A stretch of DNA of 7,419 bases from Candidatus Heimdallarchaeota archaeon B3_Heim (lineage in GTDB: Archaea > Asgardarchaeota > Heimdallarchaeia > Hodarchaeales > Hodarchaeaceae): the NCBI GenBank assembly GCA_003144275.1, contig NJBF01000085.1, positions 1 to 7,419 of the forward strand, written 5' to 3'. A program made the position numbers and the translations under genes. The notes under the pieces were generated by a model that had not been told where the DNA came from, made no database searches, and was given only the letters and a program-made list of their open reading frames with translations. The first letter of the stretch is position 1. Every line of letters begins with the position of its first letter. Below, piece after piece: positions 1,095 through 4,495 of the stretch.

Positions 1095-1115
1095 CTTTTT
1101 AAGTTAGCGCTTATG

Positions 1116-1126
1116 GGGCGGAGCCC
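1116..1126. repeat. Probable 11-bp IS target-site duplication copy GGGCGGAGCCC
   Basis: It directly abuts the IRL and fits GGG-N5-CCC, the known IS231A target consensus. The second copy would lie outside the window and cannot be seen. Confidence 0.65.
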
Positions 1127-1169
1127 CGGGGAACCTGACGTCCATATTCCCCAGGCTGAAAGCCTGGAA
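1116..1169. repeat. Cluster of GC-rich REP-like hairpins downstream of the HUH transposase remnant
   Basis: GGGC-GGA-GCCC (1116-1126); CCCCGGGG (1124-1131); GGGGAA...TTCCCC (1128-1133/1147-1152); CCAGGCT-GAA-AGCCTGG (1151-1167, 7-bp stem, GNA triloop). The cluster begins 8 bp after the TnpA stop codon on the minus strand. Confidence 0.65.
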
Positions 1170-1175
1170 CAAAAT

Positions 1176-1343
1176 TCAATCCCATAAATATTTTTCATTG
1201 TATTCAATATTATATTCTTCCAGGAAATTTCGTAACTCATCCTGAAAACTTATTCTCTTATGATACTCCTTCTGCTTCAAGATGTAATTCTTTACAACCT
1301 CAACTTTTGAGGCACTTACAGAAAAACCTCGGAATAATTCAAA
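1176..1343 (-). pseudogene. tnpA: C-terminal fragment (55 aa) of an IS200/IS605-like or REP-associated Y1 HUH transposase (TnpA); no start codon, HUH motif missing
   Basis: Manual translation: FELFRGFSVSASKVEVVKNYILKQKEYHKRISFQDELRNFLEEYNIEYNEKYLWD*. It shows the (G)FSVS motif, the catalytic-tyrosine motif YIxxQ (Tyr codon 1284-1286) and the characteristic YxExYLWD terminus. An in-frame TAA lies at 1344-1346 and no TnpA similarity is recognisable upstream. Confidence 0.88.
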
Positions 1344-2521: not shown

Positions 2522-2634
2522 AAGAGGCTATCTTTCTAAATATCAATCCTTTGCGTCCCGATAGCTATCGGGATTTGCGTAATCTTTGCGGTCTCTGCGA
2601 GAACTTCTTTATAGTACTTTTGAGACAGCCCCTT
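2522..2634. repeat. Composite MITE/REP-like element: imperfect terminal inverted repeats around a perfect 18-bp palindrome and four TTTGCG-type heptamers
   Basis: AAGAGGCTATCT (2522-2533) versus AGACAGCCCCTT (2623-2634) is 10/12 inverted identity. TCCCGATAGCTATCGGGA (2556-2573) is a perfect palindrome. Heptamers: CTTTGCG 2549-2555, ATTTGCG 2573-2579, CTTTGCG 2584-2590, CTCTGCG 2593-2599. The motifs are certain; their interpretation as one element is inferred. Confidence 0.55.
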
Positions 2635-2679
2635 AGTCATTTTTTACTAATTTTACGAAGGGATCAATATGGGAAAAAT

Positions 2680-3501
2680 ATGGAGAACATTGGAACTGAA
2701 ACATTAATCTTTGCTTTCGGATTAACTCTGTTTGCAGGATTATCAACCGGAATAGGAAGTGCTATTGCTTTTTTTGCCAGAACGACCAATATAAAATTTA
2801 TTTCCATTTTTCTCGGCTTTTCGGCGGGTGTAATGATCTATGTTTCGATGGTTGAAATTTTTGTTAAAGCAAAAAGTGCACTGGTTATGGAGCTGGGAGT
2901 TGTTGGTGGGAACTGGGCAACCGTAGGTGCATTTTTTAGCGGAATTTTCATTATTGGAATAATTGACCGGTTTATTCCTTCCGCGGAGAACCCACATGAA
3001 ATAAAAAGAGTGGAAGATATGGCATCTCCGGATTCCGCAGGTAGAAACCACAAATTAATGAGAATGGGGTTATTTACCGCTCTTGCGATTGCCATTCATA
3101 ACTTTCCGGAAGGATTGGCAACTTTCACAGCTGCCCTTACCGACCCAGGTTTGGGTATTGCTATCGCTGTGGCAATTGCCATTCATAATATTCCTGAAGG
3201 AATAGCTGTTGCCGTTCCCATTTTTTACGCAACCGGAAGCAGGAAAAAAGCATTTTTACATTCATTTCTGTCTGGTTTGGCAGAACCGTTGGGTGCATTG
3301 ATAGGCTACCTCATCTTAATGCCATTCATGAATGAGATCGTATTTGGATTATTGTTTGGAGCAGTGGCAGGTATTATGGTATTTATTTCAATTGATGAAC
3401 TCTTACCCACTGCAGAAGCATATGGGGAGCATCATTTATCAATATACGGACTAATCGCGGGTATGGCTGTAATGGCCTTAAGTCTTTTGCTTTTTGTCTA
3501 A
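2680..3501 (+). CDS. zupT: ZIP-family divalent metal (zinc) transporter ZupT, 273 aa
   Basis: Multiple hydrophobic helices, the twin metal-binding motifs [10 protein letters not shown] and [10 protein letters not shown], and LAEPLGA and DELLP. The true start is ATG at 2680 ([26 protein letters not shown]). The track's extension to 2551 translates the intergenic repeat. Confidence 0.96.
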
Positions 3502-3527
3502 ACCTATCGGAATTTACTCTCCTCCGG

Positions 3528-3556
3528 CTCTGTGGAATATATTCGATTTCACAGGG
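3528..3556 (+). terminator. Hairpin after zupT (possible terminator or REP-like element)
   Basis: CTCTGTGGAAT-ATATTCG-ATTTCACAGGG forms an 11-bp stem with two G-U pairs, 27 bp after the stop. It has no U-tract. Confidence 0.35.
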
Positions 3557-3707
3557 TCATATGGTAAATTCGCGAAGCTATGTTCCCGGCACCAAGATGA
3601 CTTTAACATTGGGAATTACATGGATAGTAATTATATTTACGGCCCGGTAAGACCTATAACGATCTATTTTGTAGTTAAACTGACTAACATTTAAATATCC
3701 AATTATA

Positions 3708-4178
3708 ATGATACGAAAGCAACTTTTAATTTTAATCTTTTTCTTCGGTTTACTGGCTGTTTCAAAAAGCCAGGATTATACTAATGGCATCGGCCTCAGG
3801 GGCGGATTACCATATGGAATAACGGTTAAACATTTTTTAAGTGACAAGAATGCCGTTGAAGGAATATTATCCACCCGCTGGGGAGGATTCCGGATAACGG
3901 CTTTGTACGAAATTCACGAACCTACCAAACAATACCCTGGTCTTAAGTGGTTTTATGGTGTGGGAGCCCATGCGGGTTTTTGGGATAGCCGAAGTCCGTT
4001 TGTTAACGATCCGGATAGCCAGGCTATCCTTGGAATCGATGGAATTCTGGGTTTGGAATACACCTTTGATGAAATCCCGCTGAACCTCGGAATTGACTGG
4101 ATCCCAAGTTTTAATCTTATCGGCCATAGCGGATGGGGTAATTGGTTAATTGGGATTTCTGCAAGGTATGTCTTCTAA
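3708..4178 (+). CDS. Secreted small outer-membrane beta-barrel-like protein of unknown function, 156 aa
   Basis: Signal peptide MIRKQLLILIFFFGLLAVSKS-Q, alternating hydrophobic Gly/aromatic-rich beta-strand pattern (GIGLRGG, WFYGVGAHAGFW, LGIDGILGLEY), and C-terminal ARYVF with the terminal Phe typical of BAM substrates. Confidence 0.8.
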   Translation: MIRKQLLILIFFFGLLAVSKSQDYTNGIGLRGGLPYGITVKHFLSDKNAVEGILSTRWGGFRITALYEIHEPTKQYPGLKWFYGVGAHAGFWDSRSPFVNDPDSQAILGIDGILGLEYTFDEIPLNLGIDWIPSFNLIGHSGWGNWLIGISARYVF

Positions 4179-4189
4179 TAATATTTTCG

Positions 4190-4219
4190 TTGGCTGGAAA
4201 TAAAAATATTATACCTTTG
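4190..4219 (+). promoter_or_regulatory. Bacteroidota primary-sigma promoter for tRNA-Glu
   Basis: TTG (4190-4192), 19-bp spacer, TACCTTTG (4212-4219, fits TAnnTTTG), 26 bp before the tRNA. Confidence 0.65.
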
Positions 4220-4245
4220 CAATCCGAAGTTTGGGAAGGTAAATT

Positions 4246-4317
4246 GGTCCGTTCGTCTAGGGGTTAGGACGCCAGGTTTTCATCCTGGTAACAGGGGTTC
4301 GATTCCCCTACGGACTA
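4246..4317 (+). tRNA. tRNA-Glu (anticodon TTC), CCA not encoded
   Basis: Full cloverleaf: acceptor GGTCCGT/ACGGACT, D arm GTC/GAC, anticodon arm CCAGG-TTTTCAT-CCTGG, T arm AGGGG-TTCGATT-CCCCT, discriminator A4317 followed by CAA. Confidence 0.97.
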
Positions 4318-4323
4318 CAAAAC

Positions 4324-4337
4324 ATAGCTTAAGCTAT
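4324..4337. repeat. Perfect 14-bp palindrome right after the tRNA (weak terminator or att-associated)
   Basis: ATAGCTTAAGCTAT, 6 bp after the discriminator base. Its function is not determinable from the sequence. Confidence 0.45.
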
Positions 4338-4495
4338 TGATATTCAGCTGATTATTTTTTAGTGTTGTCAGATTCGTTGGTAAATGATAGGAAAATAGTG
4401 TTTTTACTATACATTCAAATCATTTTGTAAAATTGTCCGGGTCGGACTTACGGAAATATTTCTTACCTGACCTGAAAACAGTGTTTGGGTATACA

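Follow-up and report, generated by a model that had tools for sequence, protein, structure and literature searches.

The window, that is, the whole stretch of 7,419 nucleotides analysed here, begins inside an insertion sequence (IS) of the IS186/IS421 type, and it is very probable that this element sits in the GGG-N5-CCC tip of a hairpin flanking a Y1 (HUH) transposase gene and belongs to a clade that picks dyad-symmetric, G+C-rich sites. The identity and the boundary of the IS, its empty site, the target duplications of its relatives and the pattern of targets at about 100 ends (among the matches listed) were observed directly, and they amount to a clean example of a known target preference, with no new mechanism.

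Identity and ends of the insertion sequence

The window is the entire contig C5 of the 103-contig assembly G000, and the IS occupies positions 1-1115 on the minus strand, where the left 1115 bp of roughly 1340 bp are present and the remainder is truncated by the contig start; it is the sole copy in G000. A complete copy of 1340 bp (L002:5-1344) differs from it at 5 of the 1115 shared bases (99.55% identity). The transposase ORF, on the minus strand from 1059 to 1, reaches the contig start without closing; 353 of its 363 codons are present, and it contains a DDE_Tnp_1 domain (Pfam PF01609, 1.3e-15, 58 bits). The full-length transposase (363 aa) of L002, the ~99% identical copy, reaches 145 bits on the curated NCBIfam model NF033592, 'IS4 family transposase', for which the cut-off is 115. 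From residue 302 of the window's own ORF, YRFRWQVEIAFKRLK shows the Y-(2)-R-(3)-E-(6)-K signature of the IS4 family, which is defined with a single transposase ORF and without frameshift (PMC2266710). Both the domain and the signature thus place the element in the IS4 family. The best annotated protein matches are to 'IS4-like element IS421', at 29% identity, and the nearest named relative of the window IS is E. coli IS186/IS421. IS421 itself (1339 bp) shares 99.9% identity with the copy found 15.4 kb into a K-12 chromosome, which we take to be the IS186A locus.

The left inverted repeat (IRL) lies at 1096-1115 on the minus strand and matches the right inverted repeat of L002 at 19 of 20 positions, 17 perfect bases of it being CATAAGCGCTAACTTAA, the reverse complement of TTAAGTTAGCGCTTATG on the plus strand at 1099-1115. 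With AA at positions 11-12 and TAA at 15-17, CATAAGCGCTAACTTAA fits the end signature CAT-------AA--TAA of the IS231 subgroup, in which the target duplication is 10-12 bp (PMC2266710 Table 1, De Palmenaer et al. 2008). The same terminal 17-18 bases are found at the ends of E. coli IS186/IS421 and in elements with transposases 54-66% identical. These bases are near-invariant despite transposases that are only 29-66% identical, and their hosts range across phyla and, nominally, domains: a Promethearchaeota MAG (L007), Chloroflexota (L006), Desulfosarcina (L005) and E. coli (L150).

The flanks of the window copy and of L002 are unrelated outside CAT/ATG, and an IS-free empty site in genome G423 matches the window as far as the junction; these two comparisons fix the boundary of the IS at position 1115. 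The first-pass annotation had described an IS231-like IS4 element whose IRL abuts its target, and both parts of this description agree with our data: the end CATAAGCGCTAACTTAA closes at 1115 and GGGCGGAGCCC follows at 1116-1126, the IS4 family is given by NF033592 and the YREK signature, and the ends are those of the IS231 subgroup, with IS186/IS421 as the nearest named relative.

The comparison with IS186/IS421 has two sides. In both, the terminal 18 bases are CATAAGCGCTAACTTAAG, the length is 1339-1340 bp, the main ORF encodes 363-370 aa with the YREK signature and is accompanied by the same +1-frame tail, and the duplications are of 10-11 bp, have G-rich and C-rich outer bases and lie inside palindromes. 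The two differ in that the transposases are only 29% identical, in that the host of the window IS is a Bacteroidota-type MAG whereas IS186/IS421 belongs to Enterobacteriaceae, and in that the window IS type has 11 bp at GGGC-N3-GCCC, whereas IS186 has mostly 10 bp at GG(G)-N-CC(C). The target of IS186 takes the form GGGG-N6/7-CCCC. A consensus target for IS186 was reportedly described by SaiSree et al. in 2001.

Membership of the IS231 subgroup holds in part, on ends and target but not on size and ORF length. IS231A of Bacillus thuringiensis shares with the window IS the type of target and the 11-bp duplication, as well as the ends of the subgroup. It also prefers the ends of another transposon, Tn4430. 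The transposase of the window IS, however, is about 24% identical to that of ISBce4 (E 4e-7), and transposases of the IS231 type have ~476 aa in one frame, unlike the 363 aa plus a tail in another frame seen here. Likewise, the 1340 bp of the window IS type fall below the range of 1450-5400 bp given for the subgroup in 2008, yet IS421, which has the same size, is listed in ISfinder under the IS4 family, IS231 group (PMC10741216).

In 9 of 9 complete elements of the clade, IS421 included, the main ORF ends 3-12 codons past F(S/P)P(WGY), and a conserved tail of 50-75 aa in the +1 frame (WRETSFAL..QAI.P.L...NW.EI...L.E..RKR) runs to the IS end. The tail lies at L002:1106-1336, just outside the left edge of the window, at L150:1712-1870, and also in L003-L008 and L052. 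Its differences by codon position (0.48/0.35/0.65) are as for coding sequence, and a T/C run may be the site of a programmed +1 frameshift, here in elements whose family is defined as being without frameshift. The main 363-aa ORF is intact in L002, and the site of the frame break is outside the window. A loosely similar tail, in frame, was seen by eye in ISBce4, with BLASTP against ISBce4 not significant, and a tblastn search of plasmids with the +1-frame tail gave one match only.

The target hairpin and its empty site

The target GGGCGGAGCCC (1116-1126), presumably one copy of an 11-bp target duplication, is directly followed on its 3' side by CGGGG at 1127-1131. It is an exact GGG-N5-CCC, as had been claimed from the sequence at first reading, and corresponds to the published preference of IS231A, which has the target GGGNNNNNCCC and an 11-bp duplication (PMC2577343 Table 1). 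The last base of the IS, G1115, is also part of the structure called hairpin B, with the core GGGGC-GGA-GCCCC (1115-1127), a 5-bp stem and a GNA triloop, which is the mini-hairpin that had been noticed earlier; a G stands at that place in the empty site too.

Hairpin B had further been taken as the centre of a longer palindrome, with the CGGGG arm left unpaired and CCCG predicted as the left arm. The empty site in G423 reads, on the plus strand of the window, ...CAGCCTG-GGGCGGAGCCC-CGGGGAACC..., without the IS, so that the left arm is CCTG and not the predicted CCCG. An extended stem does exist, but it is imperfect: CCTG against CGGG leaves one mismatch, which means that a perfect long stem is not required. 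Nor is the CGGGG arm bound to stay unpaired: with the window and the empty site folded as single-strand DNA, CGGGG(AA) at 1127-1133 can pair with TTCCCC at 1147-1152, within a middle stem GGGGAA...TTCCCC (1128-1152) that is able to take up this arm. Hairpin A, CCAGGCT-GAA-AGCCTGG (1151-1167), follows 8 bases past the stop of the Y1 remnant and is identical in L210, the locus of G423 that carries the empty site. There the sequence runs on as ...GCCCC AGGCTGTGATG..., with no IS, and a search of G423 for the IS end found no copy. A search of the window and of seven hairpin-module loci with Rfam returned a tRNA and one sub-threshold match only.

Three flanks of the window IS are known, namely GGGCGGAGCCC-CGGGG in the window, GGGCTTCGCCC-GGGG in L002 and GGGCGTTGCCC-GGGG in L173, the last two in genome G401, and all three have the form GGGC-N3-GCCC-(C)GGGG. 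Their likeness would suit a reading in which GGGC-N3-GCCC lengthens the terminal repeat, and so belongs to the IS rather than to its target. We give this reading next to no credence: the loops and stem lengths vary between copies that are 99.55% identical inside, the same sequence continues IS-free in G423 and in the empty paralogue L184, and relatives carry GGGC-N3-GCCC as a direct duplication and not as an inverted one. The empty sites by themselves refute a GGGC...GCCC flank that belongs to the IS.

The Y1 transposase locus

The Y1 (HUH) transposase remnant at 1176-1334 on the minus strand consists of the last 52 codons and the stop (1176-1178), and is without the HUH motif and the N-terminal two thirds. 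A 48-aa query from window positions 1179-1322 shares 96% identity with the C-terminus of protein P0002 (150 aa, PF01797), and tblastn of residues 99-150 against window 1179-1334 gave a 90% match; Pfam gave no match to the 48-aa fragment. JGI gives the name RayT to the cluster of P0001. In G423 the Y1 gene at L210 is intact, with a product of 150 aa that is 95% identical to P0002. The window and L210 share 95% DNA identity over 216 bp, and from a little before the stop codon up to the IS junction they do not differ at all.

The hairpin stands 3' of the intact Y1 gene of G423, and an inverted copy stands upstream. This upstream copy is perfect, CCCGGGGC-GGA-GCCCCGGG, and is flanked by two CCCT-GAA-AGGG hairpins; CCCGGGGCTCCGCCCC gives a 16/16 inverted match between the two sides of the gene, and the upstream and downstream modules have in common a three-hairpin plan, in which CCCT-GAA-AGGG hairpins enclose a central GGGGC-N3-GCCCC (L210:1385-2075, G423:C90). 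Single-strand DNA folds of the Y1 flanks gave z values of -6.0 and -3.7, the latter for the 3' flank. A gene between inverted hairpin copies is the arrangement of RAYT/REP loci, and the attribution of the hairpin to an HUH transposase locus, made in the first-pass annotation from the window alone, is therefore upheld by the intact gene of G423 with the same IS-free sequence on its 3' side and the inverted hairpin on its 5' side. The Y1 protein scores 28.8 bits on NF047646 (REP-associated tyrosine transposase), which has a cut-off of 80, and 51.8 bits on NF033573 (IS200), which has a cut-off of 55; since it falls below both curated cut-offs, we call the hairpins REP-like and not REPs.

The locus resembles the RAYT/REP and IS200/IS605 systems in its 150-aa PF01797 protein, in the same hairpin inverted on both sides of the gene, in dispersed modules and in a gene-less mini-element. 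It differs from them in that the Y1 protein, which is not known to be active, is under both NCBIfam cut-offs, and in copy numbers far below those of classical REPs.

Target duplications

By analogy with its relatives, the window copy would be flanked by an 11-bp duplication; for the IS4 family, a duplication of about one helical turn is expected. Had the IS entered by simple insertion, its far junction on the plus strand would read ...CACAGCCTG GGGCGGAGCCC CATAAGCGCTAACTTAA..., about 225 bp to the left of base 1. Searches of G000 for the far end, using all 1340 bp of the IS as well as the sequence predicted to follow the empty site, found nothing. Perfect 11-bp duplications flank six complete relatives (L004, L005, L008, L009, L052 and IS421), one has a duplication of 10 bp, and a clean duplication is absent in 10 of 17 complete relatives. 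The 11-bp direct repeats in complete relatives are GGGTTTAGCCC, CCCTCCGGGGG, CCCCCGGAGGG, CCCCCGGCCCC and GGGCTGCGCCC, and that of IS421 is GGGGCTTACCC. Repeats of 10-11 bp with G-rich and C-rich outer bases were also found at eight IS186 loci of E. coli, and most of these are situated in the hairpins that end hok/mok loci.

Since the whole target lies within the duplication, each insertion would restore it on either side of the IS. At L103:2019-2065 two IS ends stand face to face with only 13 bp (TGGGCTCTGCCCA) between them, and at L052:96-1779 three IS ends lie amid tandem GGGCGCAGCCC units; both arrangements are as expected if a duplicated target is hit again.

Target choice across relatives

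Metagenome contigs were scanned for the exact 17-bp IS end, which gave at least 87 distinct flanks among the matches listed. GGG-N5-CCC is the immediate flank at 23 of these 87 distinct ends (26%), compared with a background of 0.04% per position in the same contigs, again among the matches listed. In G000 the motif has 245 sites per 3.95 Mb, about 6e-5 per position, and, given this rarity and its frequency at the metagenomic ends, its presence at the IS junction is not due to chance. Among the same listed matches, GG-N7-CC was found at 14 and CCC-N5-GGG at 8 of the 87 flanks, at least 3 of the 4 outer pairs are complementary in 46 (53%), and positions outside the 11-mer are also enriched in G/C. 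Many of the flanks listed carry a related CCC-N5-GGGAGAGGG(TTAGGGTGAGGG) repeat. The target of the IS231 subgroup, GGG-N5-CCC with a duplication of 10-12 bp, is thus seen in the window flank, in the metagenomic flanks and in the duplications of relatives.

If the IS read the short GGG-N5-CCC only, its link with Y1 hairpins would be incidental, and the apparent preference for REP-like sites would be survivorship, because insertions in genes are lost. We regard this as possible, though on balance rather unlikely. It agrees with the sequence consensus GGGNNNNNCCC and 11-bp duplication published for IS231A, with the E. coli copies of IS186 that lie inside genes (an MFS transporter, yeaR and a group II intron reverse transcriptase), and with the empty site of the window, which is an imperfect extended palindrome. 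Natural insertions, moreover, have already passed selection, so that some of the enrichment in intergenic hairpins may be survival and not choice. The G/C enrichment outside the 11-mer in the listed flanks nevertheless argues against recognition of the short motif only, and so do the sites in G401. This MAG, labelled Rikenellaceae, has two further sites of the same IS, both in all-G/C hairpins; it contains 452 GGG-N5-CCC sites, and 3 intact CCSGGGC-N3-GCCCSGG hairpins (reversed control 0) in addition to the 2 that are occupied. Of about 454 GGG-N5-CCC sites, then, the two that hold the IS both belong to the 5 extended hairpins, for which the probability is ~1e-4 if all sites are equal.

In the Desulfosarcina MAG G400, both copies (L005 and L009) of a 56%-identical relative lie inside the palindrome CCTTCTCCC-N5-GGGAGAAGG, which occurs in 54 copies in that genome and 0 times in the control. 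Some of these copies are arrayed with a period of 181-186 bp, for example at C4:175378-175943 and C1:20144-21328. The proposal in the first-pass annotation that multicopy palindromes serve as the target therefore stands for the relatives, on both G401 sites and the 54-copy palindrome of G400, but it is weakened by the small number of perfect hairpins, 3-8 per genome.

At the other extreme, the transposase might read structure, an extruded cruciform or the tip of a single-stranded DNA hairpin, and not sequence, which would make the clade a specialist of REP-like hairpins; we consider this unlikely. Targets of both kinds, GGG-N5-CCC and CCC-N5-GGG, are found, and in each case the site is the tip of a longer palindrome (L005, L009, L007), and the IS186 copies in the terminal hairpins of hok/mok loci would fit as well. 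DDE transposases of the IS4 family, however, act on duplex targets, and the two classes of target may simply belong to different IS lineages.

Hairpin copy number and the host of the contig

Among 21 genus mates of G000 there was no match to contig C5. Over 1469-2708 and 3678-4469 (MBL-hydrolase and tRNA regions) the window matches G402:C369 and G423:C214 at 90-94% identity, and both of these genomes are members of G401's family. A search of G000 for PF01797 gave no match, and nothing close was found when relatives of the Y1 remnant were sought in the order, class and phylum of G000; relatives of the Y1 gene are present in 181 of 301 sampled genomes of G401's family. Contig C5 is probably mis-binned in G000, in which case genome-wide counts in G000, and the absence of repeats there, say little about the true host. 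That the REP-like reading fails because G000 lacks copies of the hairpin is an argument that we considered and rejected on the ground of this probable mis-binning. The contig of G402, collinear in other respects, lacks an equivalent of the ZIP zinc-transporter gene at 2551-3501 (window 2709-3677 compared with L254), and this is an indel between close relatives.

In G000 there are 5 GGGC-N3-GCCC sites, with 4.5 expected, whereas in G423 GGGGC-N3-GCCCC is present 11 times, compared with 2 for the reversed control, and exact GGGGCGGAGCCCC twice only. Perfect CCSGGGC-N3-GCCCSGG hairpins number 3 in G401, 8 in G423 and 7 in G402, and 0 in every control. Related modules are dispersed in G401 and G423, and the recurrent plan is hairpin A, a spacer AACAACAATAG or similar, and hairpin B, with compensatory changes in the outer stem (CCCC/GGGG, CCAG/CTGG, ACA/TGT, ATA/TAT). 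The locus L184 is an unoccupied paralogue of the occupied site L199. At L243:1470-1800 the modules make up an LE+RE unit of some 330 bp that contains no gene and resembles a miniature element, and modules are also present at L242.

Discussion

We propose that a DDE transposase of this type would act by cut-and-paste as a symmetric complex, and that the two ends would be joined to target strands 11 bp apart, centred on the dyad, as is expected from the family. The clade would pick dyad-symmetric, G+C-rich GGG-N5-CCC sites, and the window IS would favour longer all-G/C palindromes of the form (C)CCGGGC-N3-GCCCGG(G), for which A+T-rich genomes may offer hardly any source but the tips of small hairpins. 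The hairpin at the junction would be the central one of a module that flanks the Y1 (HUH, RAYT/IS200-like) gene on both sides, inverted; the IS would have landed in the copy 3' of the gene, and the gene would later have lost its first two thirds. Such hairpins would be tolerated, harmless landing sites. To this extent we infer that the terms 'safe haven' and 'parasitising', used at first reading for one family of mobile elements in the repeats of another, may be apt.

The REP-targeting elements IS1397 and ISKpn1 (IS3 family) and ISPpu9/ISPpu10 are known to insert at the loop or tip of extragenic palindromes that are small and dispersed. These elements differ from the window IS in family, in chemistry and in duplication length, and also in that their targets are the abundant REP/BIME sequences of proteobacteria, whereas the targets here are low-copy hairpin modules. 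It would go further to regard the whole IS186/IS421-like clade, as found in E. coli, Bacteroidota, Desulfobacterota, Chloroflexota and an Asgard-archaeon MAG, as a specialist that recognises REP-like hairpins of HUH transposases by their folded or dyad tip, and a hyperparasite of HUH repeats, and we think this improbable; if it were true, the duplicated target on either side of the IS could build tandem IS arrays at hairpins.

For the preferred reading, that of an IS186/IS421-like element in the tip of a Y1-flank hairpin, from a clade that picks dyad-symmetric, G+C-rich sites, the consequences are several. The GGG-N5-CCC rule of IS231A, known from Bacillus, extends to uncultured Bacteroidota-type genomes and to many metagenomic relatives. 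Annotation gains, in that one can predict IS ends, target duplications and contig breaks at these hairpins, and the occupied and empty sites provide a natural set on which recognition of sequence can be tested against recognition of structure. Finally, the small G/C hairpins round Y1 transposase genes are collecting places for such IS elements.
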